In this document: positions 5,686-38,679 of the stretch, one piece after another
Numbering within the stretch: the stretch's first letter is position 1
Layout: the number at the start of each line of letters is the position of its first letter
Assembly (NCBI GenBank): GCA_034429995.1
Contig: DAOUEZ010000012.1
Coordinates: 15,464 to 79,463, forward strand
Origin: Dehalococcoidia bacterium
GTDB lineage: Bacteria; Chloroflexota; Dehalococcoidia; SM23-28-2
Length of the DNA stretch: 64,000 nt
Direction of reading: 5' to 3'
Translations under genes and position numbers: made by a program
The notes under the pieces: model-generated
What the model was told of the DNA's origin: nothing
Database searches by the model: none
The model's input: only the letters and a program-made list of their open reading frames with translations

Positions 5686-5688
5686 CGG

Positions 5689-6420: not shown

Positions 6421-6456
6421 GCCTGGTGATGGCCTAGGCTCTGGGCTCTGGTTTTC

Positions 6457-9294: not shown

Positions 9295-9295
9295 G

Positions 9296-10261
9296 CTAGT
9301 TTTCCGAGTCCTCGCTGGCGAAGGAAACGGAGTGGTTCGGGGCGGGGCCTACGTCCGAGAGGGGCCAATAGGAGAACCAGGTCTTACCGATAATTTTCCC
9401 TTCGGGGATCATTCCCATTGTACTCACCCGCGAATCGCTGCTGTTGTTGCGGTTGTCGCCCAGGACGAAGTACTGGTCGTCGGGGATAACCCAGGAACAC
9501 TTGCCGCTGCATCTGGTTTGGCTGTCTATATACGGCTCGTCCAAGGGCTCACCATTGATGTAAACTACTCCATCGCGAATCTCCACCTTGTCTCCGGGCA
9601 CGCCGATGATCCGTTTGATGAAGTCGCGGTCTCGGCCTTTGGGCGACTCGAAGACCACCACATCACCTCGCTCGGGGCCGCCGAACAGATGGTGAGTGGA
9701 GTCGTCGCCGGCATCGAAGAAGGGGACAAAGTCGAAGAGTCCCAGGTCGAACTGGGCGTAGGCCAGCTTGTTGACAATGATGTACTGGTCATTCTCCAGG
9801 CTGGGGAGCATGCTGCTCCCTTCCACCTTGAAGTTCTGGGCAGTCGATTGGACGGCCAGGAAGACGAGCACGGCTAGAAGGAGCGTCTCGACGACCTCCC
9901 GATAGATGGTAAGGTAGCGGCGCTCGATGCGGCGGGGGAAGATCCCGAGTTGAATGACGCCAGCCAATATGGAGATGGCAGCAAGGGCTATCGGCCCGGC
10001 AAAGATCACGCGGTTCCATCCGGTACCGTGAGTGGCGATCCTGGCAAGCGCACCGACCGCGAACGCTGCGAAACCGACAATGAAGGAAGGAAGGGCGGCT
10101 GCCCAGCGGATTCCCCTGGCGGCAACCTCCTCTTCGGGCTTGCCCGCGGGCTCGTAGGGCGGCCCTGGCTCGATCCAGGGCTCGAGCCAGGGCTCGAATT
10201 CGGGGTCTACCGGTGGACGTGGCCACTGCATAACAACACCGAGGAGGGCTGGGACAATCAC
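9296..10261 (-). CDS. lepB: Signal peptidase I with Pro-rich N-terminal extension
   Basis: GSSMLPSL (box B Ser), KRIIGVPGD (box D Lys), VLGDNRNNSSDSR (box E). Confidence 0.8.
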   Translation of the reverse strand: MIVPALLGVVMQWPRPPVDPEFEPWLEPWIEPGPPYEPAGKPEEEVAARGIRWAAALPSFIVGFAAFAVGALARIATHGTGWNRVIFAGPIALAAISILAGVIQLGIFPRRIERRYLTIYREVVETLLLAVLVFLAVQSTAQNFKVEGSSMLPSLENDQYIIVNKLAYAQFDLGLFDFVPFFDAGDDSTHHLFGGPERGDVVVFESPKGRDRDFIKRIIGVPGDKVEIRDGVVYINGEPLDEPYIDSQTRCSGKCSWVIPDDQYFVLGDNRNNSSDSRVSTMGMIPEGKIIGKTWFSYWPLSDVGPAPNHSVSFASEDSEN

Positions 10262-17184: not shown

Positions 17185-17454
17185 CTATTCGGTCACCCGG
17201 TAGACGGCGTCACCGCTGCGACAGCGCTCCTGCACCTTGATCCCCACCGAGTCCCCTGGACCGGCCTCCTGTACGTCCTGGTGCTCGATCTGCATCGAAT
17301 CCACCACCTGCTGGAGGTCGGTGGTGTGACCCTGGATGTGGATGGTATCGCCCACCTTGAGGCGGCCGCTGAGGTCAATACCCGCTACCCCTATGTGGGC
17401 GAAGTAGTCTCTTACGCGGCCGATCTCTTCTTCTTCAGCCATGGCAGCCTCCAT
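17185..17454 (-). CDS. Small EF-Tu domain 2-like beta-barrel protein
   Basis: 89-aa product (GRLKVGDTIHIQG...GDSVGIKVQ) resembles translation-factor domain II; start trimmed to ATG 17454 with GGAGG RBS. Confidence 0.4.
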   Translation of the reverse strand: MEAAMAEEEEIGRVRDYFAHIGVAGIDLSGRLKVGDTIHIQGHTTDLQQVVDSMQIEHQDVQEAGPGDSVGIKVQERCRSGDAVYRVTE

Positions 17455-17605
17455 TCCCCTGGCCAAACGCGCCTCTTTGAGAGGGAATTTACCACTGGTG
17501 GGCAAGGTTTTCAATAGCCTATGGGGCAAAGTATGGCATAGTTCATTGGGACTGTCAGATATGCCTTTAAGTGGGGAAAATACTGCAAAACATTGCTTAC
17601 GCTGG

Positions 17606-18501: not shown

Positions 18502-19209
18502 ATGCTCGATTCGATTCGCGCTGTTGCCTTCGACTGCTACGGCACCCTCGTCCGGTTCACCACTGCCGATCTCATCCGCACCATGGCTGAGATCGCCCGT
18601 GCCCAGGGCCTAGAGGCTGACCCTGAGGTTCTCTGGGACAAGTTCGTGGAGGCGGCCTTCGTCTTTCGGGGCGAGAACGTGGCCAGGCCTACCTATCGCC
18701 GCTACGATGAGGCCTGGGCTTTCCAGTTCGAGCGAGCAACACGGGACTTGGGCTTCGAGGGCGATGGCGCTCTGGCCGCCCTTCGCCTCAAAGAAAAGCT
18801 CTCCCAGGCCGAGGCCTATGCGGAGGTGGCCGAGGTGCTGGAAGCGCTGCGGGCCCGCTATCGGCTGGCCATCCTCTCCAACGCCGACGACGATTTCCTC
18901 CGCGCCTGCCTGGCCAGGAACGGCCTGGAGTTCGATGTCGTGGTCTCTTCGGAGGTGGCTGAGGCCCTTAAGCCGGACCCGGCCATCTTCGCTTATCTGG
19001 CTGAGGTATTGGACCTGGAGCGCCACCAGATCCTCTACGTTGGCGACAATCCCATGCCCGACATCGTGGGTGCCCGACAGGCGCAGGTTCCAGTGGCCTG
19101 GCTGAATCGCTCTGGCCGTCCCCTGCCTGAGGACATGGCCGAGCCTGACGTGGAGGTGGCTAGCCTGACGGAGCTGCTGACCATCCTCGTAGCCGGTGGG
19201 GGCGAGTGA
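18502..19209 (+). CDS. HAD-superfamily hydrolase (subfamily IA)
   Basis: Motif I AFDCYGTL, motif III/IV YVGDNPMPD. Confidence 0.75.
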   Translation: MLDSIRAVAFDCYGTLVRFTTADLIRTMAEIARAQGLEADPEVLWDKFVEAAFVFRGENVARPTYRRYDEAWAFQFERATRDLGFEGDGALAALRLKEKLSQAEAYAEVAEVLEALRARYRLAILSNADDDFLRACLARNGLEFDVVVSSEVAEALKPDPAIFAYLAEVLDLERHQILYVGDNPMPDIVGARQAQVPVAWLNRSGRPLPEDMAEPDVEVASLTELLTILVAGGGE

Positions 19210-19313
19210 AGGTGATCGTTGCCAGCCTCGTGATTCGTTCGGGGCTCGCCCTGCTGGCGGACCGCTGGTCGCTGCGGTGGCGGTGTTCGTGATCCCTGTG
19301 GAGGGGAATGTCT

Positions 19314-19742
19314 ATGGTGACGTTGTTTCCTGACCCTGGGGTGCTGCCTACCCTTCCTCCGCCAAACCCTGGGGAAAGGATACTAATCAGCGTCGAGGGT
19401 GAGCCCCCCCGTAAAGATGTGTCCTTTTCGATACGCAATCCGAAACATCCCAGATACGAGACCTTCCTGAGATTGCGGCAGGAAGCCACAAGGGTCATGA
19501 ATTGCAGGAAGTGGTATGACGGCCCGGTCAGGTTGGTCTTCACCTACTATTCGGAGAGGCTTGAGAGAAGCCTGATTGACTATGTTGGCGGTATTATGGA
19601 CACGCTCGATGGGAGTCACGGACTCACCTTCACCTATCTGCCGATAGTTTTCCAGGATGACTGTCAAGTTTGCGACGCCGAGTCCAGATTCGTACAAGCT
19701 TGCCAGACAACTTATACCGTCGAAGTCATGTCTCTCGAGTAG
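19314..19742 (+). CDS. Possible RusA-family Holliday junction resolvase (low-GC gene)
   Basis: ILISVEGEPPRKD resembles RusA N-terminal phi-x-G-x-P-P-x-K; C-terminal VFQDDCQVCD matches the RusA DDxQV catalytic motif; local GC visibly lower than flanks. Confidence 0.4.
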   Translation: MVTLFPDPGVLPTLPPPNPGERILISVEGEPPRKDVSFSIRNPKHPRYETFLRLRQEATRVMNCRKWYDGPVRLVFTYYSERLERSLIDYVGGIMDTLDGSHGLTFTYLPIVFQDDCQVCDAESRFVQACQTTYTVEVMSLE

Positions 19743-19976
19743 AGGGAACGGCGGCTAAGGGCGAGTCGAGCTTAGAAGACATGCGACCGCAGCCTGAAGG
19801 CTGCGGCATCGGTATGGATTGATGCCATACCCTTCAGGGTGTGGTGCTGAGCCCACAAGAGCGTGAGCGGCGAAAACGCTGTCTTGGGCCAAACTCCTCT
19901 TGTGGCCCTGGCGCCGCCGGTGTATACTTCTGTCTAACCGTATATTCACCTGACTACACGACGATAGGTGGTTGTC

Positions 19977-21110
19977 ATGAATATTTCTTGTCTGCAAGAG
20001 AATCTCTCCAAGGGCCTGTCCATTGTTGGTCGAGCGGTGGCCGTTCGCAGCACACTGCCTCAGACCTCCCATGTCTTCATCGCCACCGACAATGGCCGCC
20101 TCAAGTTAGCGGCCACCAATCTGGAGATTGCTATCACCTCCTGGATTGGCGCCAAGGTAGAGGAGGAGGGGGCGATTACCGTGCCTGCCCGCCTCCTGGG
20201 CGATTTTGTCAACTCCCTGCCCAACGAGCGCATCGAAATGAGCCTGGCGCCCAGGGCCAGGCAGTTGCGCATTGTCTGCGCCCGCAACGAGGCTGCCGTG
20301 GCTGGCATGGACGCCAGCGACTTTCCCCCCATCCCTGCCATCCGCGAAGGGGTCTCCCTCACTCTCGATCCCCTGAGCCTGCGCACCGGTATCAATCAGG
20401 TGGAGTTCGCCGCTGCCAGCGACGACACCCGGCCGGTGCTTACGGGTATTCATCTCCTCAGGGAGGAGCGTAACCTCACCCTGGCCGCTGCCGACGGTTT
20501 CCGCCTGGCCGTGCACACCCTCTCTCTGGAGCAGGAGGCGTCCGAGCGTACTGAGGTCATCATTCCTGCTCGGGCGATGCGAGAGGTCAACCGCCTGCTG
20601 GCCGATGAGGAAGAGCCCATCGAGATGACCATCAACAGCAGCCGCAGTCAGGTTCTGTTTCGCCTCAAGAACGTGGAGCTGGTGGCCCAGCTTATCCAGG
20701 GCACCTTCCCCAACTACAGCCAGCTAATCCCTCAGGCCCACACCTGCCGCGCTGTTGTCGATGTGGCCGAGTTCCTGCGGGAGACGCGCATCGCTGCGAT
20801 CTTCGCCCGCGACGGTAGCGGCATCATCCGCATCCAGGTCACGCCGGGGGAGGAGCTATCGCCAGGCAAGCTGGTCATCTCCGCCCGGGCCGAGGAGCTC
20901 GGTGATAACCGCGGCGAGATCGATGCCTCCGTGGAGGGCGAGGCGTCCAAGGTTGCCTTCAACAGCAGGTATCTCCAGGATGTGCTCCAGGTGCTGGATT
21001 GCAGCCAGGTGGCTCTGGAGACCTCCGGCCCCTCCAGCCCCGGCGTCCTGCGACCGGTGGGCCAGGACAACTACGTCCACGTGGTCATGCCCATGTTCGT
21101 TCAATGGTGA
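19977..21110 (+). CDS. dnaN: DNA polymerase III beta subunit (sliding clamp)
   Basis: MNISCLQENLSKGLSIVGRAV...LTGIHL...three-domain beta clamp architecture. Confidence 0.85.
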   Translation: MNISCLQENLSKGLSIVGRAVAVRSTLPQTSHVFIATDNGRLKLAATNLEIAITSWIGAKVEEEGAITVPARLLGDFVNSLPNERIEMSLAPRARQLRIVCARNEAAVAGMDASDFPPIPAIREGVSLTLDPLSLRTGINQVEFAAASDDTRPVLTGIHLLREERNLTLAAADGFRLAVHTLSLEQEASERTEVIIPARAMREVNRLLADEEEPIEMTINSSRSQVLFRLKNVELVAQLIQGTFPNYSQLIPQAHTCRAVVDVAEFLRETRIAAIFARDGSGIIRIQVTPGEELSPGKLVISARAEELGDNRGEIDASVEGEASKVAFNSRYLQDVLQVLDCSQVALETSGPSSPGVLRPVGQDNYVHVVMPMFVQW

Positions 21111-21189
21111 CGTAGAGCCGAGGGATTCCGTTCCGTTGGGAATTTCAGATTCCCGGCCACACAGTTACGTACTCCACGTGGGGCATTGA

Positions 21190-21966
21190 ATGCCGCGAGA
21201 GGTTGGCTCCTGGACCCAGGACAAACTCAAGATACTACGACAGTATTTGCCGGCTTACCTTGCTGCCACCACCAAAGCACGTGAACGGATCTACATCGAC
21301 GCCTTCGCCGGGCCGGGCTTGAACCGCCTTAGAGGAAGAAACCTCACCATTGACGGGTCACCGCTCATAGCCCTCGATGCCCGTGCCCGGAACGGGACGA
21401 AGTTCGATCGCCTCTTTTTCATCGAGCGTGACCGAGCAGTCGCGGCAGAACTTCGCGGCGTTCTGAAAACTCGCGACAAGACTCAACGGGCCAGCGTAAT
21501 TGACGGGGACGTCAACAAGGAACTGCCCAGACTGATCACCAAGCTTCATCGACGATCTCCCACATTCGTTTTTGTTGATCCAGAGGGAATCGAACCTCAA
21601 TGGACCACCATAGAGGCCATCGCTCCATGGCGAACTGAGCTGCTGATCAATTTCCCACTCGGGATGAGCATCAATCGAAACCCAGATAGTGCTAAGGTGA
21701 CTGCGTATTTTGGGACAGACCAGTGGCGGCAGGTATGGAACTCAACACGTCCGGGTAAGAGTCGCGCGGTGTTGCAACTGTACAAGGAGCGGCTGCGCAA
21801 GCTTGGGTACCAATATACCACCGAAGACGATCGCCTCATCAAAACAAGTGGACGCCGACGCCTTTACTACCTCGTCTTCGTCAGTAAGGTGCTTCCAGCC
21901 AAGAAAATCATGACTTGGGTGTTCGGGCAACCGGATTCGGTTGGTCAGACTCGCATGAACATCTGA
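21190..21966 (+). CDS. tcmP: Three-Cys-motif partner protein TcmP-like (methyltransferase-fold)
   Basis: 258 aa; IDAFAGPG SAM-binding-like motif; found immediately adjacent to a DUF5131 gene as in the described TcmP pairing; lower GC than surroundings. Confidence 0.55.
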   Translation: MPREVGSWTQDKLKILRQYLPAYLAATTKARERIYIDAFAGPGLNRLRGRNLTIDGSPLIALDARARNGTKFDRLFFIERDRAVAAELRGVLKTRDKTQRASVIDGDVNKELPRLITKLHRRSPTFVFVDPEGIEPQWTTIEAIAPWRTELLINFPLGMSINRNPDSAKVTAYFGTDQWRQVWNSTRPGKSRAVLQLYKERLRKLGYQYTTEDDRLIKTSGRRRLYYLVFVSKVLPAKKIMTWVFGQPDSVGQTRMNI

Positions 21967-21974
21967 GTTGGGGA

Positions 21975-22742
21975 CTACCCATAAACCATCGCTGAGACTT
22001 CTGCGGCTGGGAGACTCGGAGCCGGGAACTCGTTCCAAGTCTTGCCATCCAATATTCGTCCGGCGACCTTCTTGCCAAGTCGCTCGCCTGCTTCGTTGTG
22101 GGCTCCCCACTGTTTGAAGAAGAATGGCACGCGTGTTTGCTGACACTGTTGTCGTATCTCCCGCACCCAGTCTGCCTTCATGGGGCGGGCGTGCGGCCCG
22201 CTTTCCCCGCCGACAATCACCCAGTCGATGCCCTGCAGATCCAGGCGAAGAGGGCCCAACAGCGGCTCGCACGATAGAAAGTGCACCTTGGCGGGCACCT
22301 TCCGCAGGTCATCGATTCGACACGTCCACCGCTGATTCTCTACTGATACGCCCATCCAGACGTTGTCGGGCCAAGACAAGCGTGGCGCCAGCTGCACCAG
22401 TCGCTCTGATCGCTTCGTGAGTATCTGGAAGGTGTGCCAATCGGCCTCTGCCATGACGCTGAGCACCGACTCGATGAACTCGTCCGGGACATCCTCATGG
22501 AACAGATCGCTCATGGAGTTGACGAAGATCATGTGGGGCTGAGTCCACTTCAGGGGCTGCTCAAGTCGCTCCGGTCGGAGCTGGAGGTCAAAGCCGCGTT
22601 CGTACGGATGGCCGGGTACGCCTCGAAAGCGCTCCGCAAAGGTTTCAGCGTAGCAGTGAGCGCAGCCTGGGCTCACCTTTGAGCATCCGGTGACGGGATT
22701 CCACGTTGCCTCGGTCCACTCGATAGAGGAGCGCTGTGCCAT
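21975..22742 (-). CDS. Phage Gp37/Gp68 family (DUF5131) three-Cys-motif protein
   Basis: N-terminal IEWTEATWNPVTGCSKVSPGCAHCYAE (C-x6-C-x2-C) characteristic of PF07505; convergent with tcmP-like gene, 8-bp gap. Confidence 0.7.
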   Translation of the reverse strand: MAQRSSIEWTEATWNPVTGCSKVSPGCAHCYAETFAERFRGVPGHPYERGFDLQLRPERLEQPLKWTQPHMIFVNSMSDLFHEDVPDEFIESVLSVMAEADWHTFQILTKRSERLVQLAPRLSWPDNVWMGVSVENQRWTCRIDDLRKVPAKVHFLSCEPLLGPLRLDLQGIDWVIVGGESGPHARPMKADWVREIRQQCQQTRVPFFFKQWGAHNEAGERLGKKVAGRILDGKTWNEFPAPSLPAAEVSAMVYG

Positions 22743-22756
22743 TTCAACATCCTAGA

Positions 22757-22798
22757 GCTAGATGTGCTGCGGCCTCATCCTAACATCTAGCTTGTCGC
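22757..22798. promoter_or_regulatory. Perfect 10-bp inverted repeat (agctagatgt ... acatctagct) upstream of DUF5131 gene
   Basis: Direct reading; 22-bp spacer; located 15-55 bp upstream of the minus-strand start at 22742. Confidence 0.3.
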
Positions 22799-23025
22799 AG
22801 TGCATGTGCACTATGCCTTCGCCAAGTCCATGCTCAGTATCGAATATACACCGCTGGGCGCGGAAATGGGAGACCTTCTACGCCTTGGTTTGCCGTGCGT
22901 GCCCATGCTCGTTCGGCGGAGATGTAACAATAGCGGGCGGCGGTGAGTCTCTTCATAGGTGGGCAGGCTTAGTTTGCCCATGTGTTAGCTTGTCTTGTCT
23001 CCTTCTCAGCATAGGCAGGGGGGCT

Positions 23026-23724
23026 ATGAGAATACTAGCGGTAGATGACGAACCCGAGGTTATCGACGTAGTACGGCTTTGCTTCAATCTCCGCTGGCCG
23101 GAGGCAGAAGTGATCGCCGCCACTACCGGCCAGGAGGCGCTGGCCGCTATCGAAGGGCAAGCGCCTGACCTGGTGCTCCTGGACATCATGCTCCCCGATA
23201 TCGACGGTTTCCAGGTGTGTGAAGAGGTGCGGCGCTTCTCTGATGTTCCCATTATCATGCTCACCGCCCGCGATGCGGAGGTGGAGCGGGTGCGTGGGCT
23301 GGAGATGGGAGCCGACGATTACATTACTAAGCCCTTCAGCCACCTGGAACTGCTGGCGCGATCGCGGGCAGTTCTGCGTCGCTATCAGAACCAGCCGCCC
23401 GCCGTGGGCGAGGCGTTCGAGGCAGGCAACTTCCAGATGGACTACAGCACTCGCAGGGTGACGGTAGGGGACAAGCAGGTGAGGCTTACCCCCATCGAGT
23501 ACGGCCTCCTCTATCACCTGACCCGCAACGCCGGTCGGGTGCTGCCCCATCGCACTCTCCTGGCCAAGGTCTGGGGCCGGGAGTACACCGATGAATTGGA
23601 CTACCTGAAGGTTTACATCCGCCGCCTTCGCCACAAGCTGGGCGACGAGATGAGTGCCACTATCTCCATCGAAAGCGAGAGAGGGGTCGGCTACCGGCTG
23701 GTCCCCACCGATTCCCAATCGTAA
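23026..23724 (+). CDS. OmpR/PhoB-family two-component response regulator
   Basis: Receiver domain (LAVDDEP...DLVLLDIMLPDIDG...K) plus winged-helix trans_reg_C (VRLTPIEYGLLYHL...YLKVYIRRLRHKL); long ORF 22762 trimmed to ATG 23026. Confidence 0.8.
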   Translation: MRILAVDDEPEVIDVVRLCFNLRWPEAEVIAATTGQEALAAIEGQAPDLVLLDIMLPDIDGFQVCEEVRRFSDVPIIMLTARDAEVERVRGLEMGADDYITKPFSHLELLARSRAVLRRYQNQPPAVGEAFEAGNFQMDYSTRRVTVGDKQVRLTPIEYGLLYHLTRNAGRVLPHRTLLAKVWGREYTDELDYLKVYIRRLRHKLGDEMSATISIESERGVGYRLVPTDSQS

Positions 23725-24010
23725 CGTCACCTCCCTAGAGCAGTGAGCGGTCGCACGCTGGGCGCGCCCGTTGCACATTGTCAGGCGGCCACAGCCAGCC
23801 TTCACCCTCTTTTAACGCTCCCGTTCCTGTTTTTCACTGATCCCTAGGTTCGTTCCGGCGATAATAGCCGTAGCGGAAACGGAAGTTTGTGTGGCTTCCT
23901 GGGGAAACCGATTTGCTTGAGTGGCGAAAAGCCGTTATGGTTCGCGCCTCATTCGTTTACATAAGGATAACGCTGCAATGGGTGGCGTTCCTCTCTAGCG
24001 GGATAGGTGG

Positions 24011-25663
24011 GTGATGGACATGTGGCAAAAGGGTCGTTTCGGCAAAGGACTGCTTTTGTGGGCCTTGGCGCTCGTTGTGGTTGGCGGGCTGGCGGTGGCC
24101 GCTCTTGTCGCCAGCCAGGTTAGTTTCGCCAGCGGTTCTCAGAGTGCGCCTCAGTGTTGGACGCCCACGCCGACCCCAACGCCTCCGGCTCCGCCCTACC
24201 TCGTGACTGACAAGAATGCTGATCCTGGGAAGTGCGAAGAGGCGGAGATCGAGCTCATCGTGCGAGGTGAAGGCGATCCGGTGTACAAGCCCCTGGACGT
24301 GATGCTAGTCCTGGACGAGTCGGGGTCCATGGGGAAGCCGTCCGGCGACCCACCCATCGGGTATCTCAAGGACGCCGCCAAGAAACTGCTGCAGGAGCTG
24401 GATTCGAGCCAGGACCGAGTCGGCCTGGTGTCCTATTCGACCAACGCCCACCTCGGCCGGCAACTGACCCACAACTTCAGCCTGGTGGAGAGCGCTATTA
24501 ATGGTTTGAGCGCCGATGGCTACACCAACATCGGTGACGGCGTCTACGATGCTCAGAAGGAGCTGGACGACCACGGCCGTACCGATGCCATGCCGGTGAT
24601 GGTGGTGCTGAGCGACGGTGTCGCCAATCGTAGGCACGCAGCCGCCGGTTGCAGAAGCGTATGTCCCGCTTCTCACAACGACTGCACGGGGGACGCCATC
24701 AACCAGGCAGTGACGGCCAAGACCAAGGGCACAATCCTGTTCACGATCGGTCTGGGCTTCGAAGATCCTGACTTTGTGTGCCCCAGAGGGACCGACCTCG
24801 GCGCTGTGGTAGCGTTGGCCCGCGAAACGCTGCAGACCATGGCCTCCGGTACGGAGAATTACTTCGAGGCGCCGAAGCCTAGCGACCTTGAGGGCATCTT
24901 TGAAGACATCGCCGAGATCATCACCAACATCGCTGGTTACGACGTAACGGTCATCGAGATCCTGCCGTCCTACATGCACTACATCGCTAGCTCAGGGAGC
25001 CCGGCGCATACCACACACGATGCGGGGCCGCCGGAGACCGTGACGTGGGACTTGGGCAATGTGGCCATCGACGAAGAGTACCATATTACCTTCAGCGCGG
25101 AAGTGGACGTGGCGATGGCAGGTTCTTCCGTCCTGGCGGACGTATGGCCCGACACCCGAGTCGAGTATTTTGACTACCTGGACAGCCCGCACTCGGTGCC
25201 CTTCCCAAAGGCATGGGTAACTGTGGAGGCTTGCCCCACACCTACGCCTACACCTACACCTACGCCTACACCTACGCCTACGCCTACACCGACGCCCACA
25301 CCCACCCCGACGCCTACGCCTACGCCCACACCCACCCCGACGCCTACACCGACGCCTACACCGACACCCACGCCCACACCGACGCCCACCGCTACGCCCA
25401 CGCCTACACCAACGGCAACACCTACCCCAACGCCCTCGCCAACACCTGCTCCGACGGTCACGCCATCTGCTCTGCCGGAGGCCGAGACTCCCACGCCGAC
25501 CGTGCCGCCTGGCATGCCAGCGGCTCTGCCGGCAACCGGGGGCAGCGGCGCAACGCCGTTGACCACGGTTTGGCCCGCGCTGGCGCTCATGGCTGGTGCT
25601 ATGGCCTTGATGCTGGCGGGCACGGGGAGTGCGGTGTGGTCGCTGAGGCGGCGGAATAAGTAG
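24011..25663 (+). CDS. Cell-surface von Willebrand factor A domain protein with (TP)n linker and LPXTG sortase anchor
   Basis: Signal peptide; MIDAS motif [13 protein letters not shown]; about 70-residue PTPTPT linker; LPATGG + hydrophobic segment + RRRNK tail. Confidence 0.7.
25234..25445 (+). repeat. Coding tandem hexanucleotide-based (acgcct/acacct) repeat encoding (TP)n linker
   Basis: Direct reading; inside VWA surface protein ORF. Confidence 0.85.
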
Positions 25664-25697
25664 CGAACGACTCCTTTGCTCTCGAGGCCGGATAGTC

Positions 25698-25727
25698 GAG
25701 GCCCCAGGCGAACCCGCCTGGGGCCTC
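25698..25727 (+). terminator. Perfect 13-bp stem hairpin downstream of VWA surface-protein gene (possible terminator, weak U tract)
   Basis: gaggccccaggcg aacc cgcctggggcctc; T-rich run only about 20 nt downstream. Confidence 0.35.
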
Positions 25728-25859
25728 GCTGTTGGAGGTTTCCTCCCCTTTTCCTCAGCAATAGCCTCGCATAACGGATTTTATTCGTAGCGGGGAGAAC
25801 CTGTAACAGGGGCGTGGCTGCGGTGTCTTTATGTTTAGAGAGCCTGCCGAGGTCAGCTC

Positions 25860-27320
25860 ATGTTTCGTATTAGGCAGTATCCCTTTGCCAGGGACCCTCT
25901 GCGAGAGGTAAGCCTTCTCAAGCGATGGGTGAGGGTTGGCGCTTTCTTGGCGACCCTCACTCTTGTGTTGCTTTACCTCTTCGCCTTCGACCTGTCTGTG
26001 GAGAGGGGCGTTATCATCTTCCTGACGATGGGCGTCACTGCTGCCCTGGCCATCGAGCTGGCCTTCAGTCATATTCTTCGCCTGGCCAGAGCAAGCATTT
26101 ATCCGGTGAAGCTGGCGGTGGAGCTGAGCCCTTTGCAGGGCTTCAAAGAGGCCTGCCGTCGCAGCGCCGAGATGGTGGCCCAGCTTTTGGGGGCAGAAGC
26201 GGCGGTGGTGGCCTGGATACACAGCGACCTGCAAGAGCTGGAGCCGCTGGCCAGTGCAGGCCTTCCCAAGCAGTGGCTCAAGGTGGCTCCCCACCTCTCC
26301 TTGGCCGAAAGCGAGCTTCAGGATGCGGTACAGCGAGGTCAGGTGGTCACCAAGCGAACGGCAGCCGGAGACCGTTGGTTTTCCGGCCTCGGCGAATCGT
26401 ATTCTGTGACCTATGTGCCCCTCCTATCCTCGGACAAGGTGATCGGCGTCCTTGGATTGGCAGGCGATAGCGCCACCTTCAATCCCACGGACCGTCGGCT
26501 GTTGAGCGCTATCGGCGTCGTCATTGGCCTGGCCCTGGATAACGCCCGCTTGTACGATCAGGAGAGGAAGCGGGCTGAGCGGCTGCAAGAGCTCGCCCAA
26601 ATAAGGAGCGATTTTCTCCTTACAGTCTCCCATGAACTACGAACGCCTCTCACCTCGGTCAAGACATCTGCTGAGATGCTCCAGGAAGAGGATGACTCGC
26701 CGGCGGAGAGTCCACAGGGCCAGCTCATCCGCAATATTGTGCAAGGCGTCAGTCGACTCAACACTCTCATTGGTGATCTGGTGAGCATGGCCCGCCTGAG
26801 CAATAACCAGCTCCAATTGAACCTGGAACCGGTGGGAACGGGCGAGATGGCAAACGCCGCCTGTAACCTTATCCGGCCCCTCATCCAAACGAAAAGGCAG
26901 ACCCTCGATGTTCACTTCGACGTCCCCGGGCCCAAGGTGCTGGCGGACCAGCGGCGCTTCGAACAGATATTGGTGAACCTGCTATCCAATGCCCATCGCT
27001 TCACGCCTGCCGGTGGGCGCATCAGCGTCGAGGTGCGCGAGGAAGGCGACGAGGTTATCATCGCCGTCTCCGATACCGGTTCCGGCATCCCCGAGCGCGA
27101 ACGGCGGGCCATCTTCGAGCCCTTCTATCGGGGTAGAGAAGGCTCCGGCAGGCGTGTGCCTGGAGGCATGGGCATGGGCCTGGCTATCGCCAAATCTCTA
27201 ACAGAGCTGCACGGCGGGCGCATCTGGGTGGAGAGCAGCGAGGGCGGTAGCACGTTCTTCTTGGCCATTCAGCGTTACCTGGAGCCCGCCGTCGAGCCTG
27301 TGAAGGCGCAGGCCATCTAG
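25860..27320 (+). CDS. Sensor histidine kinase with N-terminal TM region and GAF domain
   Basis: H-box SHELRTPLTSV, N/G1/G2 boxes (LLSNAHRFT, DTGSGIP, GMGMGLAI). Confidence 0.75.
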   Translation: MFRIRQYPFARDPLREVSLLKRWVRVGAFLATLTLVLLYLFAFDLSVERGVIIFLTMGVTAALAIELAFSHILRLARASIYPVKLAVELSPLQGFKEACRRSAEMVAQLLGAEAAVVAWIHSDLQELEPLASAGLPKQWLKVAPHLSLAESELQDAVQRGQVVTKRTAAGDRWFSGLGESYSVTYVPLLSSDKVIGVLGLAGDSATFNPTDRRLLSAIGVVIGLALDNARLYDQERKRAERLQELAQIRSDFLLTVSHELRTPLTSVKTSAEMLQEEDDSPAESPQGQLIRNIVQGVSRLNTLIGDLVSMARLSNNQLQLNLEPVGTGEMANAACNLIRPLIQTKRQTLDVHFDVPGPKVLADQRRFEQILVNLLSNAHRFTPAGGRISVEVREEGDEVIIAVSDTGSGIPERERRAIFEPFYRGREGSGRRVPGGMGMGLAIAKSLTELHGGRIWVESSEGGSTFFLAIQRYLEPAVEPVKAQAI

Positions 27321-27384
27321 GCTTCCCGCCACTGCTAGGCCATTTGCTTCGATTCCCCCTGGGTTCCTGCTCCAGCCCATAGGC

Positions 27385-27434
27385 TATAATGATGGCGCCT
27401 GCCTGTCGGGAGGCGGGGTTTCCATTCCGACAGG
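27385..27434 (+). promoter_or_regulatory. Candidate recF promoter -10 (TATAAT) followed by 8-bp-stem hairpin in leader
   Basis: TATAAT at 27385-27390; cctgtcgg/ccgacagg inverted repeat 27402-27434; no convincing -35. Confidence 0.25.
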
Positions 27435-27457
27435 CCTGAGCAGCCTGGGAGCTTGCC

Positions 27458-28711
27458 ATGAGAGTGCGTCGCCTCCAGCTATCCGATTATCGCAACTTCC
27501 CCCGGCTGGACTTCGCTCTCCCCGCTGGGCCAGTGGTCATTGTGGGGGGCAACGCCCGGGGCAAGAGCAATCTTCTGGAGGCGGTCTGTCTCCTTTCGAC
27601 GATGCGCTCGCCCCGGGCCGACAGCGATGGCGAGCTGATCCGCCGGCAGGCTGCCCAGGCGATGGGGACGCCGCCCCTGGCCCGCCTGGTGGCCGAGGTG
27701 GAGAGGGATAGTGGGCCTCTGCGGCTGGAGATGGTCATCGTTGCCCGCAGCGGAGGCCTGGGCTCCCTTGCTGCCCGACCCGCTGGCGTCCCCCGTGCCA
27801 ACAAGGTGGTGCGGGTGAACGGCGTCGCCAGGCGCCTGGCCGACGCCGTGGGTCAGCTGAACGCGGTGCTGTTCACCGCCCACGACATGGAGGTAATTGA
27901 CGGCCCACCGTCCCTGCGCCGGCGCTATCTGGATATCACCATCTCTCAGGTGGACAGGGGCTACCTGCGGGCCCTTCAGCGCTACGCCAAGGTGCTCCTC
28001 CAGCGCAACCATCTCCTGAAGCGAGTGCAAGAGGGCAGCGCCCGCCGAGAGGAACTGGCCTTCTGGAGCCAGGAGCTAGTGCGGGAGGGCAGTTACATCA
28101 TCTGGGCGCGGGCCCAGACGGTGGCTAGCCTGGGGCCCCTGGCCGCGGCTGCCCACGCCGCCCTAACCGAGGGGCAGGAGGAGCTGACGCTGGTCTACCA
28201 GCCCCAGTTGGGGGGAGCGGTCGACGGTCTCCAGGCCGCCTCCCTCAGCCAGAGCGAGCTTGCTGCAGCCTTCGCTCAGGTCGTGGGTCGCTGGGGTGAG
28301 CGGGAGATAGGAGCCGGCGCTTCCCTTCTGGGCCCTCACCGCGACGATCTGCTGTTCCACCTTAACGGCATCTCGGCAGCTACCTTTGCCTCGCGGGCCC
28401 AGCAGCGCACCATCGCCTTGGCCCTGCGCCTGGCCGAGGCCCGCTACCTCCTGGAACGACGAGGCGAGTCGCCAGTCCTCCTTTTGGACGACGTCCTCTC
28501 GGAGTTGGACGGCGGGCGGCGGGCGGCGGTGCTGGCTGCCATCGCCGACTACGAACAGGTGCTGGTTACGGCCACGGAGCTGGATCGCTTCTTGGCAGAC
28601 TTCCTGAAGGGCGCGAACCTATTCCAGGTGGCTGGAGGCTCGCTGGAGGCTGTGGTTGGGGCTTCCGGCGCCGAAACAGGGGAATCCTCTTCCGGGGCAC
28701 CATCACCGTGA
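27458..28711 (+). CDS. recF: DNA replication and repair protein RecF (with low-complexity C-terminal tail)
   Basis: Walker A GGNARGKSNLLEA, signature LSQSELAAAFAQ... region, Walker B LLLDDVLSELD. Confidence 0.85.
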   Translation: MRVRRLQLSDYRNFPRLDFALPAGPVVIVGGNARGKSNLLEAVCLLSTMRSPRADSDGELIRRQAAQAMGTPPLARLVAEVERDSGPLRLEMVIVARSGGLGSLAARPAGVPRANKVVRVNGVARRLADAVGQLNAVLFTAHDMEVIDGPPSLRRRYLDITISQVDRGYLRALQRYAKVLLQRNHLLKRVQEGSARREELAFWSQELVREGSYIIWARAQTVASLGPLAAAAHAALTEGQEELTLVYQPQLGGAVDGLQAASLSQSELAAAFAQVVGRWGEREIGAGASLLGPHRDDLLFHLNGISAATFASRAQQRTIALALRLAEARYLLERRGESPVLLLDDVLSELDGGRRAAVLAAIADYEQVLVTATELDRFLADFLKGANLFQVAGGSLEAVVGASGAETGESSSGAPSP

Positions 28712-29585
28712 GGGCCGCTGGCGCAACCTCAAAGACCGTGGGATAGCCAGGGTAGAAATCGCCGTCGAGCTGCACCGGCAGGGGCCTCTCGCTGTGCACC
28801 TCCAGCCGACGCGCCCGTCGGTAGAGGACGGGGCTTGCTCTCAGGTGCGCCTGGGCTGCTACCCGCAGGGTGTGGAAGATGATGTCCAGGGTGTGGCGCC
28901 CCTGAAAGATGCACGTGTCCAAAAGGCCGTCGTCGGCGTAGGCGCGGGACGTCACTTGGGTAATGCCGGCGTAGTTGCGGGTATTGCCCACCACCATCAT
29001 CAGAAGACTGGTCTCCAGTGGCTCATCGTCGACGATCAGCTTGACCCGCTGGCCCCGGTATCGCAGAGATTGGCCGACGGCGATGAAGGCATAGGTAGTA
29101 GCGCCCAGATATCGCTTGATGTTCAAGGGCAGGGAGGCGGCGATCTGCCCGTCCAGGCCTAGGCCGGCCATCAAGAAGAAGTAGCGCGCTTTCCCTCCTG
29201 ACTGCGCGCTGGCCCGACCCAGATCCATGCGCCGCGCCTGACCGCCTACCGCCGCCTCGAGGGCAGCGATGGGCTGGCGAGGGATGCCCACCTCCTTGGC
29301 CCAGACGTTGGCTGTGCCCGCCGGAATGACCGCCAGGGGCGTTTGGCTGCCGGCCAGGCCGTTCACCGCCTCGTTGAGGGTACCGTCGCCGCCGCAGACT
29401 ATCACCAGCGAGCGCTCCTCCTGGGCGGCGCGAGCGGCCATGGCTGTAGCGTCGCCCGGCGAGTGGGTGAAAGCCCAGTCCGCCTGCCAGCCCTGGCTGT
29501 GCAGCCAGGAGGCGGCCTCTCGCAGATGGCGACGGGAGGGCAGATTGGGGGCGGCGGGGTTAACGATTACGGTGGCCGACTGCAT
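28566..29585 (-). CDS. Diacylglycerol kinase catalytic-domain lipid kinase (YegS/BmrU/DagK family)
   Basis: LVIVCGGDGTLNEAVNGL and AVIPAGTANVWAKE motifs; 3' end overlaps recF by 146 bp in Pro-rich tail. Confidence 0.7.
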   Translation of the reverse strand: MQSATVIVNPAAPNLPSRRHLREAASWLHSQGWQADWAFTHSPGDATAMAARAAQEERSLVIVCGGDGTLNEAVNGLAGSQTPLAVIPAGTANVWAKEVGIPRQPIAALEAAVGGQARRMDLGRASAQSGGKARYFFLMAGLGLDGQIAASLPLNIKRYLGATTYAFIAVGQSLRYRGQRVKLIVDDEPLETSLLMMVVGNTRNYAGITQVTSRAYADDGLLDTCIFQGRHTLDIIFHTLRVAAQAHLRASPVLYRRARRLEVHSERPLPVQLDGDFYPGYPTVFEVAPAALTVMVPRKRIPLFRRRKPQPQPPASLQPPGIGSRPSGSLPRSDPAPWP

Positions 29586-29656
29586 GAGTGGTTCGCTCCA
29601 GGGCCATGCTAGCGTCCAGCCAGGGAGGGGGCAAGGGCATTGCGTCGTGGCAGTGG

Positions 29657-30694
29657 CTAGGCTGTCTCTGGAGCTGTTTCCTCTGCCGGCTCGACGGGGG
29701 GCGTCGGGCGCAGGAGCTCCAGGTCGGCTTCGTTCCCTAGCACCATCAGGCGGTCGCCCAACTCCAGGATAGTGGTTCCCCGCGGGCCCACCTGAGTGGC
29801 GCCGCTGGGCTTCTGAAGGGCGAGGACGGTGGTGTCAGGACAGGCCTGGAAGCATCCCTCGATGGTCATGCCGGCCAGTCCCGACTCTTCGCTTGCCTCC
29901 AGTTCCGCCAGGATCTGCTCGCCTTGGTGACCTTTGACTAGGGTGTCGATGAAGTCCACCACCAGGGGCTGGAGAGCGGAGAGGGCCATACGCCGCCCGC
30001 CGATGCTGTAGGGGGAGATGACCCGATCGGCGCCTGCCCGCAGCATTGGCGTTGTGCTGGCCGGCTGGCCCACGCGGGCCACCACGAACAGGCGGGGGTT
30101 GAGGGCCTTGGCGGTGAGGACGATGTAGGTGTTGCCGGAGTCAGAGTCGGAGGCGGCCAGCAGGCAGCGGGCACGCTGGATGCCGGCCTTGAGGAGGGTG
30201 GCGTCGGAGGTGGCATCGCCTTCGACCAGCAGGTAGTTTTGCTTGCGGACTCGCTCTATGGCCTCTGGGTTGGAGTCGACGATGACGAGGGGCACGCCCC
30301 GAGCTGTGAGGTCGCGGGCGATCTCCTCGCCCACCCGGCCGAACCCGCAGAGGATGTAATGGTCACGTAAAGCCTCGATCTTTCCCCTCATTCTACGCAC
30401 CCCCAGTAGACTCTCCAACTCGCCTTCCACGGCTAGCTGCATCACCGCTGTCAGGATGTACAAGATAACCACGATCCCCACGACGATAATAACGATGGTG
30501 AAAACGCGTCCCGCATCCCCTAGCGGGTTGATCTCCCCGAACCCCGCCGTCGTTATGGCCGTGATGGTCTGGTAAGCGGCGTCGAGGAAGCTGAAGCCCT
30601 CGATGGTGATGTAGCCGATAATGCCCACCGCCCACAGAACGAGGGCGGCGGTGCCGCCAAGGGCTAACCTCTGCCAGGGGGTGAGCGGTCTCAC
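29657..30694 (-). CDS. RCK (TrkA-N/TrkA-C)-gated potassium channel, MthK-like
   Basis: Two TM helices flanking pore TTAGFGE selectivity-filter-like sequence; Rossmann GFGRVG of RCK domain; C-terminal TrkA-C. Confidence 0.7.
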   Translation of the reverse strand: MRPLTPWQRLALGGTAALVLWAVGIIGYITIEGFSFLDAAYQTITAITTAGFGEINPLGDAGRVFTIVIIVVGIVVILYILTAVMQLAVEGELESLLGVRRMRGKIEALRDHYILCGFGRVGEEIARDLTARGVPLVIVDSNPEAIERVRKQNYLLVEGDATSDATLLKAGIQRARCLLAASDSDSGNTYIVLTAKALNPRLFVVARVGQPASTTPMLRAGADRVISPYSIGGRRMALSALQPLVVDFIDTLVKGHQGEQILAELEASEESGLAGMTIEGCFQACPDTTVLALQKPSGATQVGPRGTTILELGDRLMVLGNEADLELLRPTPPVEPAEETAPETA

Positions 30695-35649: not shown

Positions 35650-36699
35650 ATGGCAAACGACGAGCACGTCAGGGTAGTGCGGCAGGGCGCGGAGGCCATA
35701 GCCGAGTGGCGGTGGCGGAACCCCACGGGGGGGCTTGATCTGTCCGGGGCTCGCCTCGCGGAGGCTATGCTACCCCAAGCGGACCTCGTTTTGGGGGACC
35801 TGAGCAGGGCGGACCTCCATGAGGCTAACCTGGCCGGGGCTCTTCTGTCGTTCGCTAACCTCGACCGGGCCTACCTTTTGGGCGCCAACCTCTCAGGGGC
35901 CGACCTCAGAGGGGCGTGGCTGGGGGAGGTGAACTTCGCATTTGCGGATCTAGAAGGGGCCAATCTCAGCGAGGCCTTTCTCCACGGTACTAGGTTCGAG
36001 GCGTCCGTGGTGTCCCAGGCTGATTTCTCGAACGCCAAGTTAAGCTACGCGTCTTTCGCTGGCGTGGATCTGAGCCAGGCTCGTGGGTTGGGAAGGGCCG
36101 ACCACAGGGCGCCTAGCAGCGTCGGCGTCGAAAGCCTCCTAGCCTCGGTGCGTGGAGCGGGAAACCAGCTGACGCCGGACCTCCGGACGTTCTTCCGAAG
36201 CGCCGGCGTGCCCGCGGAGCTGCTGGAGGCGCTACCCCGGATCGTAGCCGCGGTGCAATACTACAGCTGCTTCGTTGCCTATGGGGAGCCTGACGTGGCA
36301 TTCGCTCGCGAGCTGTGCGAGCACCTAACGGGTAAGGGTGTCTCTTGCTGGCTGTATGAAATGCACGCGACCCCGGGCCAGCGCACGTGGACCGAGATCG
36401 TCCGCAGGAGGCGGGAAGCCGACAAGGTCGTGGTGGTCTGCTCCGCCGATGCGCTGGTGCGCGACGGGGTGCTCAAGGAGATCGAGGAACAAGTAGATGA
36501 AGATCCTGACAAGATCGTCCCGATCTCCCTGGATGACCTCTGGAAGGCACCCGGCTTCAGGGTCATGCGCGCAGAGCGTGACCTAAAGCCCTATTTGCTG
36601 GAGCGGAACCACGCGGACTTCGCCAACCTCGACTACGAGGACGCGCTGGAGCGTCTACTAAAGGGGCTGAGGCGAGAAACCGAGCAGAAGGACGAGTAG
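35650..36699 (+). CDS. Pentapeptide-repeat / TIR-domain fusion protein
   Basis: N-terminal residues approx 28-170 are A(D/N)LxxA(N/D)L pentapeptide repeats; C-terminal CFVAYGEPDVAFARELCEHLTGKGVSCWLYE...KVVVVCSADALVRDGVLKEIEEQ matches TIR_2 pattern (FxSY..D..FA..L...L...G...W...vvvlS...SxW...E) including candidate catalytic Glu. Confidence 0.55.
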   Translation: MANDEHVRVVRQGAEAIAEWRWRNPTGGLDLSGARLAEAMLPQADLVLGDLSRADLHEANLAGALLSFANLDRAYLLGANLSGADLRGAWLGEVNFAFADLEGANLSEAFLHGTRFEASVVSQADFSNAKLSYASFAGVDLSQARGLGRADHRAPSSVGVESLLASVRGAGNQLTPDLRTFFRSAGVPAELLEALPRIVAAVQYYSCFVAYGEPDVAFARELCEHLTGKGVSCWLYEMHATPGQRTWTEIVRRRREADKVVVVCSADALVRDGVLKEIEEQVDEDPDKIVPISLDDLWKAPGFRVMRAERDLKPYLLERNHADFANLDYEDALERLLKGLRRETEQKDE

Positions 36700-37503: not shown

Positions 37504-38679
37504 ATGCGAACCCTGCTAGTCTTCTTGGCGTTGGTTATCCTGGCGGCACTTGCTGTAGGCGGCTGCAATGGGGGAGGGGAGGTCAGCCCCACGCCCACTG
37601 GCACCGGCACGCCGCTGCCCACTGGTGTGCCCGAGGAAGGGCTAAGGCTGCTGTACAAGGAGTTCGGCAGCGAGGCCGATGTCATCTGGCTGGCGTTGGC
37701 CGCCGAGCCCCAAAGGCGGGCGAAGGTGGCTGAGGTGGAGCACGCCCCCGGCGTTGGCATATCGGCCAGCCTTTCCCCCGACGGCGAGCGTATCGCCTAT
37801 CTGGCGCTGCCCGCTGCTGGCGGAGACCCGGCCCTGGATGCCCAGGCCTGGCTGCTGGACGTGGATAGCGGTAAGATACGCCTGCTGGCCAGCGATCTGG
37901 ACGGGGCCAGCAAGCCCGTTTGGTCGCCCGATGGAAGCTCCATCGTCGTGCGTCGGAACGGGCCCTGGGAGGAGATGGGCCGAACTGCCTCGCTGCTGGG
38001 GCTGGATGTCAGCGACGGCAGTGAGACCGTTATTCTGGAAGAGCAAGAGGTCTTCGAGCTTTTCCCCATCGGTCATTCGCCCGATGGCGTCTCCCTCTAC
38101 TTCGCTCAGGTCGTCCTTAGCGGCACTCACTTCGGCGCTGTGGCCACAGCAGGGGGCAGTCCCCGATTGCTGGTTCAGGCCAGCGACGAGTCGGCCCGCG
38201 ACTGGCATCTCTCCCCCGATGGCTCCCGCGTTACCTTTCTGGCCGGCCAGCCCACGGACGATCGGATAGCTATCCGGGCCTTCGTAGTCGAGCTTGTTGA
38301 GGGTGGAGAGCCGCAACCCCTGTCCCAACTGTCGGAGGGTCTGGATACTGGCGACCATTTCAATCCCCTGTGGCATCCGGATGGGGAGCGCATCACGGTG
38401 GGGCGGCCGCCTGCCGATGGAGCCAGTGCTGCGGCGCTGGTCTCCCTGGTGGGAGGGGAACTGGAGGAGGTCACACCTGGCCCCGATCAGGGCTTTGACG
38501 TGCCGGCAGGCTGGTCGCCCGAGGGCGACTATCTGGCTGTGCGCTCCTTCGAGGGGAGTTCGGCCGCTCAACCCGGCCGGGAGCATCTGGTGATCATCGA
38601 GTTGGGTAAGGGACGGCAGACAGTGGCCGATAAAGGCAACCTGGAATTCATCGGTTGGCTGACCAGTGATTCGCAGTAG
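37504..38679 (+). CDS. TolB-like PD40 beta-propeller lipoprotein
   Basis: Lipobox LAVGGC; repeated WSPDGS/HSPDGV/LSPDGS/WHPDGE/WSPEGD PD40 repeats. Confidence 0.55.
   Translation: MRTLLVFLALVILAALAVGGCNGGGEVSPTPTGTGTPLPTGVPEEGLRLLYKEFGSEADVIWLALAAEPQRRAKVAEVEHAPGVGISASLSPDGERIAYLALPAAGGDPALDAQAWLLDVDSGKIRLLASDLDGASKPVWSPDGSSIVVRRNGPWEEMGRTASLLGLDVSDGSETVILEEQEVFELFPIGHSPDGVSLYFAQVVLSGTHFGAVATAGGSPRLLVQASDESARDWHLSPDGSRVTFLAGQPTDDRIAIRAFVVELVEGGEPQPLSQLSEGLDTGDHFNPLWHPDGERITVGRPPADGASAAALVSLVGGELEEVTPGPDQGFDVPAGWSPEGDYLAVRSFEGSSAAQPGREHLVIIELGKGRQTVADKGNLEFIGWLTSDSQ

Follow-up and report, generated by a model that had tools for sequence, protein, structure and literature searches.

How did five genes come to lie between dnaN, which encodes the DNA polymerase III beta clamp, and recF in a Dehalococcoidia genome? 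The question is raised by a 64,000-nucleotide (nt) stretch of a Dehalococcoidia bacterium (GenBank assembly GCA_034429995.1, contig DAOUEZ010000012.1, positions 15,464 to 79,463; hereafter the window). An initial annotation of this sequence had described a 6.3-kb, five-gene block between the two genes and attributed it to stepwise insertion into a conserved replication-gene neighbourhood. The block is real. Six-frame open reading frames (ORFs) and profile searches placed 6,347 nt between the dnaN stop and the recF start, and all seven genes were found in the stated order: dnaN, a gene for TcmP (three-Cys-motif partner protein), one for a DUF5131 protein, an OmpR-family response regulator gene, a gene for an LPXTG surface protein with a VWA domain, a sensor histidine kinase gene, and recF.

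We consider it probable that the dnaN-recF interval is a clade-specific backbone with slots whose contents turn over, and that the first of these slots, between dnaN and the regulator (slot 1), descends from a site-specific integration at dnaN. The arrangement is ordinary gene-island turnover, a mosaic, and is not surprising, as the textbook dnaA-dnaN-recF order is inapplicable in Dehalococcoidia.

Backbone genes and variable slots between dnaN and recF

Relatives were collected by a DnaN scan of species-representative genomes, which yielded 80 loci (97-60% identity, nearly all from metagenome-assembled genomes of Dehalococcoidia or other Chloroflexota), and by a metagenome scan with RecF, which added 28 further loci. 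The window proteins were mapped onto the fetched loci, designated here by L-numbers. This synteny comparison, which the initial annotation had proposed as a check, revealed a backbone with variable slots: approximately 40 related loci shared the order dnaN, slot 1, regulator, slot 2, kinase-recF. All close relatives carried ribDEBAH-MerR-HAD-dnaN on the left side and regulator-kinase-recF-lipid kinase-TrkA, the last two on the minus strand, on the right side. Regulator, kinase, recF and lipid kinase were together in every relative in which the region was visible (approximately 25 genome and metagenome loci). Among close relatives recF was 78-92% identical, and the kinase-recF-lipid kinase core was still present at approximately 50% recF identity (L014, L104, L105). 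Orthologues of the regulator were 84-97% identical in all close relatives and 70% identical in L014; those of the kinase were 84-92% identical, with recF always directly 3'. Because they are common to all relatives with a visible region, the regulator and kinase are, on the evidence of synteny, ancestral to this clade and not inserted. The initial annotation had counted both genes among the insertions while naming genes shared by relatives as the mark of an ancestral arrangement, and these two are so shared.

The content of slot 1 varied among genomes with 87-97% identical flanks. The slot held TcmP and DUF5131 in the window, L005 and L094; a 367-amino acid (aa) protein and an orthologous DUF5131 (82-88% identity) in L001 and L009; a GGDEF gene on the minus strand in L004 and L087; a 167-aa ORF in L082; 8.4 kb of metabolic genes in L003; a DUF4238 gene in L010; and unassigned genes in L008. 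In L006 the slot was empty, with 143 nt from the dnaN stop to the regulator start. The 367-aa partner combines a TcmP-like N-terminus (22-26% identity) with a GMT-type winged helix (GMT-wHTH). By its flanks L001 is the closest relative (97%), yet its partner gene is of this second type and its DUF5131 has no more than 88% identity to that of the window, which points to exchange within the island. A non-coding block upstream of DUF5131 is conserved at the right end of the island (Table 1). Its right ~100 nt were retained in the GGDEF-type islands of L004 and L087, and therefore GGDEF replaced a DUF5131-type island, the stepwise element of the initial interpretation. Stretches homologous to this block were also present in the metabolic-type locus L003 and in L081, where the island content was not visible.

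Base composition had been described as low in the first two genes of the block and high in the rest. TcmP is the sole clearly deviant gene, with 54.8% GC and 61% GC at third codon positions (GC3). DUF5131 has 60.0% GC (GC3 71.5%), the regulator 61.2%, the VWA gene 63.3% and the kinase 60.5%, compared with 63.0% for dnaN (GC3 79%), 68.1% for recF (GC3 80%) and 62.9% for the whole window. The low GC of TcmP was thus upheld; the GC of the last three genes is close to the average or a little under it and is not high. Stepwise insertion likewise held in part: three of the five genes (TcmP, DUF5131 and VWA) are variable inserts, and the regulator and kinase belong to the backbone. For the TcmP/DUF5131 and LPXTG-VWA genes a mosaic built in steps was borne out by presence and absence among relatives and by clean empty sites (slot 1 of L006, slot 2 of nine loci), and for TcmP/DUF5131 also by a dnaN-end repeat.

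Table 1 Features of the dnaN-recF region. Positions are those of the window.
Feature	Position	Strand	Basis or remark
Slot 0, extra DNA between HAD gene and dnaN promoter	19210-19890	+	~650 nt, GC 55.9%
dnaN, DNA polymerase III beta clamp	19977-21110	+	TIGR00663, 282 bits vs cutoff 137.65
Left repeat copy, attL-like	21088-21114	+	Top direct repeat; last 23 nt of dnaN + 4 nt
TcmP, three-Cys-motif partner protein	21190-21966	+	TIGR04474, 175 bits vs cutoff 53; PDC-M41A, 98 bits
DUF5131 / Gp37-Gp68 family protein	21975-22742	-	PF07505, 364 bits vs 28.9; PDC-M41B, 375 bits; phrog_2045, E=7e-107
Conserved non-coding block, right end of island, upstream of DUF5131	22743-22899		Alignments
Right repeat copy, attR-like, decayed dnaN 3'-end relic	22900-22926	+	21/27 identical to 21088-21114
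OmpR-family response regulator, backbone	23026-23724	+	Response_reg + Trans_reg_C
Slot 2 insert (~1.9 kb, ends approximate)	23781-25716	+	Alignment with empty sites, clean insertion
LPXTG VWA protein	24014-25663	+	VWA domain (Pfam); sorting signal
GAF-HisKA-HATPase sensor histidine kinase, backbone	25860-27320	+	Pfam; two N-terminal hydrophobic helices
recF	27458-28711	+	TIGR00611, 283 bits vs cutoff 172; PF02463 (SMC_N-type ATPase)

A copy of the dnaN 3' end at the far border of slot 1

Within 21050-23030, the highest-ranking direct repeat consists of the dnaN 3' end and the relic listed in Table 1, and it brackets the TcmP/DUF5131 pair. When a hidden Markov model (HMM) of the right-end block, built from seven genomes, was searched against 72 kb, the top eight matches were extreme dnaN 3' ends in the same orientation. 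The relic was better kept at the equivalent position of L009 (E=0.008, 25/26 nt), L085 (E=0.044), L096, L106 and L003, and a similar relic was present 865 nt 3' of dnaN in the more distant L012. The window relic is convincing only via its homology with these better-preserved copies. In L003 the full series was preserved: block, relic, native dnaN-regulator spacer and regulator promoter; the window type is the same minus approximately 45 nt. At the left border, homology among island types ended 5-22 nt past the dnaN stop codon. Slot 1 therefore shows three features of integrative islands, namely a far-border repeat of the dnaN 3' end, an empty site (L006) and a gene of deviant GC (TcmP).

A longer copy was also considered, in which the ~190-nt block 5' of the regulator would be a decayed copy of the last ~165 nt of dnaN. 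This was rejected: the profile search backed 25-30 nt only, and the longer alignments were marginal (8-19 of 300 shuffles reached the score; in L009 alone, none of 300 did). A match of the dnaN 3'-end profile within the VWA gene (nhmmer, ~24357-24432, E=0.0013) was taken as chance, being in-frame coding similarity without positional logic.

One locus differed on a larger scale. In L106, an AMP-dependent ligase gene (2583-4174) is 88% identical at the DNA level to window 41124-42715. This gene lies ~18 kb downstream of the regulator in the window and ~2 kb upstream of the regulator in L106. The L106 layout points to a rearrangement on a larger scale, broken at the dnaN-end relic, and some slot 1 differences probably arose in this way.

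Serine-recombinase genes at dnaN 3' ends elsewhere

Viral contigs were scanned for dnaN 3'-end sequence, for which a shorter pattern was successful, and the scan was then extended to all fetched loci. In the genomic locus L048, whose DnaN is 63% identical to that of the window, dnaN (4130-5260, plus strand) shares its final 26 nt with a minus-strand ORF of 586 aa (5235-6995). This ORF is 36-39% identical to the Pfam-confirmed recombinases of viral contigs L115 and L117, and GC drops to 0.42 right after dnaN. Contig L117 opens with the final 65 nt of a dnaN (E=1.4e-14); a gene for a 533-aa Resolvase/Recombinase/Zn-ribbon protein overlaps them, and the DNA beside the recombinase has 43-47% GC. 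In contig L115 the gene for a 552-aa recombinase overlaps a 28-nt copy of the dnaN end that stands alone, without an adjoining dnaN, an arrangement that is attP-like. The three recombinases are 28-39% identical to one another. From these junctions, the dnaN 3' end appears to act as an attachment site for serine-recombinase elements in Dehalococcoidia.

A first scan of viral contigs yielded no attachment site but only a contig of phage type that encodes a DnaN homologue. Such homologues were noted in two IMG/VR viral contigs, L114 at 8814-9947 (37% identity to the window DnaN) and L116 at 1705-2853 on the minus strand (33%). One of these contigs also carries a terminase gene and the other an adjacent DNA methylase gene, and both DnaN proteins end in MPMFVQW like host clamps.

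Proposed origin of slot 1 and alternative explanations

In the scheme that we favour, slot 1 would start at the dnaN 3' end, which would serve as the attachment site for large-serine-recombinase elements. The recombinase gene would lie antisense at the junction, overlapping the last ~25 nt of dnaN, and integration would leave dnaN intact, with its former 3' end displaced to the far border, where it would form a direct repeat. The far-border repeat is deduced from the relics in relatives; no single recombinase-bearing element was seen with both ends. The window island would be a remnant without recombinase, composed of the dnaN end, TcmP, DUF5131, the conserved block, the 27-nt relic and the regulator promoter. 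Its cargo is a self-contained convergent pair in which a protein with a predicted methyltransferase fold accompanies a radical-SAM-like protein with three Cys residues. Slot 2, which separates regulator and kinase, holds a sortase-type cassette with shared ends and an exchanged passenger. We infer that the window island descends from a recombinase-borne integration and that the recombinase was lost.

The scheme has a close counterpart in the ssrA islands of Dehalococcoides. At attL of these islands, a reverse-strand gene that contains the target repeat encodes a serine recombinase of ~540 aa; the opposite end is marked by a 20-bp direct repeat, and some islands have no integration module (McMurdie et al. 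2011, PMC3146451). That paper makes no mention of dnaN. The two systems belong to the same class and share a target at the 3' end of a single-copy essential gene and a variable cargo; the L048 and L117 junctions also share the reverse-strand large serine recombinase at attL, and the window shares the repeat at the far border. They differ in that the target here is the protein-coding dnaN and not the tmRNA gene, and in that the window island has neither a recombinase nor the six-gene integration module, and no tandem repeat array was seen. SCCmec, which CcrAB inserts at the 3' end of orfX/rlmH, is similar in its insertion at the end of a conserved single-copy gene that stays intact and in its exchangeable cargo (a comparison also drawn in PMC3146451). 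It differs in phylum, in its recombinase pair and in cargo. An attachment site at the dnaN 3' end would parallel the ssrA islands that move dehalogenase genes, and the dnaN-end signature may offer a simple way to delimit islands in the many metagenome-assembled genomes of Dehalococcoidia.

Several observations weigh against an integrative origin. No recombinase gene or pseudogene was found in the window island or in slot 1 of close relatives, and the recombinase junctions lie outside this clade, in distant relatives whose dnaN is 63% identical or whose host is unknown. The window relic is weak when taken alone: its 14/15 core was reached by 6 of 500 shuffles, and nhmmer with a dnaN 3'-end profile did not call the window copy. 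Metabolic genes and GGDEF in slot 1 are unlike mobile cargo, and L106 suggests larger rearrangements. The DUF5131 identities (88, 86, 84 and 83%) roughly follow the backbone, so any acquisition would date far back, and what changed afterwards may have been loss or replacement instead of insertion. For slot 2, no ORF with the TLxTC motif of sortases was found in the 64-kb window.

Some of these observations would also fit a generic recombination hot-spot at slot 1, with the relic left by an old local duplication or illegitimate recombination and the contents swapped by homologous exchange via the flanks, all without site-specific integration in this clade. Such a history could account for the absence of a recombinase from every close relative's slot, for ordinary metabolic and signalling genes among the contents, for flanks that are 97% identical around a divergent island, and for the weak hints of dnaN similarity beyond 30 nt. 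It explains less readily why, in several genomes, the relic at the far border matches precisely the final ~25 nt of dnaN with its orientation unchanged, or why three independent serine-recombinase genes overlap the same sequence elsewhere; the extended similarity, moreover, is without profile-search support. On balance we regard a hot-spot of this kind as unlikely. That the entire five-gene block is ancestral, with nothing inserted and relatives differing by deletions only, is quite improbable. Regulator and kinase are indeed conserved everywhere, and DUF5131 identities of 83-88% roughly track backbone divergence, but the GC of TcmP is deviant, the partner type is incongruent with flank relatedness (L001 compared with the window), the dnaN-end direct repeat bounds the island, the TcmP/DUF5131 pair occurs in unrelated contexts elsewhere, and the slot 2 passengers are mutually unrelated, the nearest homologue of the VWA protein being 45-52% identical.

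Two explanations concern the locus as a whole. The window dnaN might be a second clamp gene of accessory type, carried in a large region that is mobile or part of a secondary replicon, in which case the missing dnaA and the unusual neighbours would reflect a non-chromosomal setting. The absence of dnaA from the window and the DnaN homologues encoded by viral contigs of the phylum (37% in L114, 33% in L116) could suggest this. Nevertheless, 80 species-level genomes have an orthologue, and all close ones carry the riboflavin operon and the MerR and HAD genes upstream of it; the gene is also found in complete chromosomes (CP070630, at 1.49 of 2.18 Mb; OY969584, at 1.08 of 2.66 Mb). With a composition that matches the window and housekeeping genes as neighbours as well, an accessory clamp gene is very improbable. 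An assembly or binning chimera is hardly credible: nothing specific speaks for it beyond a source that is probably a metagenome-assembled genome, and the independent metagenome contig L094 has the same order of dnaN, TcmP, DUF5131, regulator, surface protein, kinase and recF, and each junction recurs in other assemblies.

Beyond the turnover of slots and the site-specific origin of slot 1, a broader reading combines three proposals, and we hold this combination to be possible but doubtful. It comprises a second, ssrA-island-like system that targets dnaN; a window island that is a remnant mobilisable in cis, with L006 as the excised state; and a regulator-kinase operon that docks, and possibly regulates, LPXTG cassettes. 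In such a dnaN-island system the 3' end of the recombinase gene would be antisense to the last codons of the clamp (MPMFVQW) and would rebuild them.

The TcmP/DUF5131 module

The genes for TcmP and DUF5131 are convergent and 8 nt apart. DUF5131 carries an N-terminal three-cysteine motif, Cys20-x6-Cys27-x2-Cys30, in GCSKVSPGCAHCY, and its orthologues in L001, L005, L009 and L094 are 82-88% identical. Membership of the radical SAM (S-adenosylmethionine) mobile pair protein A family (TIGR04471) was rejected, as the protein scored 83.5 bits against a cutoff of 355 and its motif is Cx6Cx2C, not the canonical Cx3Cx2C. The AlphaFold2 model of TcmP had a pLDDT of 90, and its best Foldseek match was RlmJ (E=7e-9, TM 0.58). 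More than 250 Foldseek matches were obtained at E<=0.001, and nearly all of the 50 listed were methyltransferases. TcmP contains the invariant motif D37-x-F-A-G-P-G43 (glycine-rich motif I). After strand 4 it has D130-P-E-G (consensus D-T-E-G) with no aromatic residue, and the catalytic motif IV of N6-adenine methyltransferases (D/N-P-P-Y/F) appears to be absent. From the structural model, TcmP is predicted to adopt a class-I SAM methyltransferase fold. Searches of PDB sequences with TcmP and DUF5131 returned nothing significant.

The pair is not specific to dnaN. In other Chloroflexota, homologous convergent pairs (TcmP plus, DUF5131 minus; 57-66% identity) occurred in unrelated contexts, always as a bare two-gene unit, beside ClpB, RecO/MarR or ABC1/haem genes. 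Inverted repeats were noted around the pair in two unrelated genomes, L112 (5837-5865/7645-7673, 29 nt, 79% complementarity) and L110 (5783-5801/7547-7565, 19 nt, 74% complementarity). The two sets are dissimilar, none was present in the window, and they are possibly due to chance.

Both proteins, encoded by adjacent genes, match the component models of the PADLOC candidate system PDC-M41. The likeness to PDC-M41 (also PDC-M30) and to the TIGR04474 'mobile pair' extends to the occurrence of the pair as an isolated module in varied contexts. PDC-M41 is listed as a candidate only, and literature searches found no functional study of DUF5131, TcmP or PDC-M41. In S. meliloti, the TcmP gene is two loci away from that of the defence protein Hna (SMa2243 vs SMa2245) and is up-regulated with Hna in nolR+, and TcmP occurs among prophage cargo (PMC12445080, PMC12429752). 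TcmP/DUF5131 would most likely be a nucleic-acid-modifying or defence-type accessory module. A compact module with a swappable partner and a predicted methyltransferase fold offers a starting point for work on this defence candidate.

The surface-protein cassette of slot 2

The slot 2 insert consists of its own upstream region, the VWA gene with an (ACNCCN)n linker repeat (25235-25447), and part of a perfect 12-bp hairpin (25698-25727) that straddles the right junction. The slot was empty in nine relatives (L004, L081, L082, L085, L087, L091, L092, L096, L106), with ~210 nt between regulator and kinase, and was filled with one or two genes in the window, L006, L094, L001 and L093. The VWA protein has an N-terminal membrane segment, a long (TP)n stalk, the sequence LPATGGSG, ~30 mostly hydrophobic residues and an RRRNK tail. 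The slot 2 proteins of the window and the four filled relatives have in common an MDMW-type N-terminus, a TP-rich stalk, and LPxTG followed by a membrane segment and a basic tail. Their passengers differ: the window has VWA, L001 has prealbumin folds of SpaA type, and the domains of L006, L093 and L094 are unassigned. Among 5.8 billion proteins the nearest homologue of the VWA protein was 45-52% identical, the matches being dominated by TP repeats. The simplest explanation would be that passenger domains were exchanged by recombination between the shared ends.

The window protein resembles sortase-anchored LPXTG adhesins with VWA or pilin-like domains in its layout: a signal or membrane segment precedes the passenger, a stalk rich in Pro and Thr comes next, and LPATG, a hydrophobic stretch and a basic tail follow. 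It differs from them in the position of its gene between two-component genes and in the exchange of its passenger among close relatives; in addition, no anchor HMM match was reported for the protein and no sortase was seen in the window. An exchangeable surface-protein cassette within a two-component operon may be a sign that, in an uncultured lineage, the cell surface varies at the level of strains.

The regulator and kinase that flank the cassette have domain sets (receiver and winged helix; HisKA and HATPase) that fit a two-component system of the OmpR/PhoB family. The regulator ORF opens at 22762, yet its domains begin at residue 89 and every orthologue starts at ATG 23026; because of this the gene was assigned the coordinates given in Table 1. 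No named NCBIfam equivalog (PhoB, MtrA, WalR and others) reached its cutoff with the regulator, which is therefore left without a subfamily assignment.

Replication context of the locus

The dnaN product contains the three beta-clamp domains (PF00712, PF02767, PF02768). A start at ATG 19977, as initially annotated, rather than at the GTG of the ORF at 19968, was supported by the conserved MNISCLQE start in relatives. An exact-sequence look-up with the window DnaN returned no record. On the 5' side of dnaN lie genes for a HAD hydrolase and a MerR regulator and the riboflavin operon ribDEBAH; on the 3' side of recF lie a lipid kinase gene, a TrkA-type channel gene and a VWA/AAA operon. The observation that dnaA is not upstream of dnaN was thereby verified. 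No DnaA-like P-loop and no second dnaN or recF were found in the 64-kb window, and neither dnaA nor gyrB was among the ~40 large window ORFs scanned. Cumulative GC skew, the check that had been suggested for locating the origin, climbs over the whole 64 kb with small local dips near the block and no sustained reversal, and therefore neither origin nor terminus lies inside the window. The proposal that this dnaN locus lies away from dnaA and oriC agrees with both results. Promoter and terminator scans over 19000-29800 gave numbers of sites not above those in shuffled sequence, and Rfam identified three tRNAs only in the window, none of them within the region.

The window resembles the canonical dnaA-dnaN-recF-gyrB cluster in that dnaN and recF are co-oriented and 6.3 kb apart. 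It differs from that cluster in having five intervening genes and no skew inflection; the window yielded no dnaA, and the ~40 ORFs scanned included no gyrB. The fetched flanks of 66 more distant Dehalococcoidia dnaN loci contained recF in no case (0/66), and in five long distant loci dnaN was flanked left and right by unrelated genes, among them those for PHP, amidase, Ham1, MoaA and flavodoxin. In Thermomicrobium roseum, another member of the Chloroflexota, dnaN, dnaA, gyrA and gyrB are dispersed (PMC2615216). These three observations indicated that a conserved replication-gene neighbourhood is not a property of the lineage, and the premise of dnaN-recF adjacency in the initial annotation is not a rule in Dehalococcoidia. 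Insertion into an intact dnaN-recF pair is not shown by these data, and the 6-kb proximity may or may not be a vestige of such a neighbourhood.

Further variation was found on the 5' side of dnaN. Slot 0 (Table 1) contains a 144-aa ORF (19308-19742) without a Pfam or PHROG match. In L004, L006 and L082 the same position holds only ~100 nt, and L005 has the last ~110 nt in common with the window. Slot 0 is arguably a third variable slot flanking dnaN. The 3' end of the HAD gene is also unlike that of relatives.

Additional features of the window

At the other end of the region, the ORFs of recF and the convergent lipid kinase gene (YegS/DAGK; 28566-29585, minus strand) overlap by 146 nt at their 3' ends (28566-28711), and the last ~17 RecF residues are of low complexity and have no counterpart in relatives. 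On the left, a 114-aa ORF with an EF-Tu domain-2 fold (17185-17529, minus strand) stands alone between ribH and the MerR gene.

Further downstream, a 349-aa protein (35650-36699) combines pentapeptide repeats with a C-terminal TIR domain and may be an immune-type effector; its L093 orthologue is 63% identical. A 554-aa protein (38666-40330) has a BACON domain, its match to SLT transglycosylase is weak (E=9e-5, with no stretch significant by itself), and its gene includes a repeat at 38960-39175 of five 42-nt (14-aa) Pro/Thr-rich copies. A perfect 41-nt tandem repeat (49110-49199, 2.2 copies) contains the T-loop-like motif GGTTCGAA. It runs into the 5' end of tRNA-Arg(TCG) at 49188-49262 and resembles duplicated tRNA fragments.

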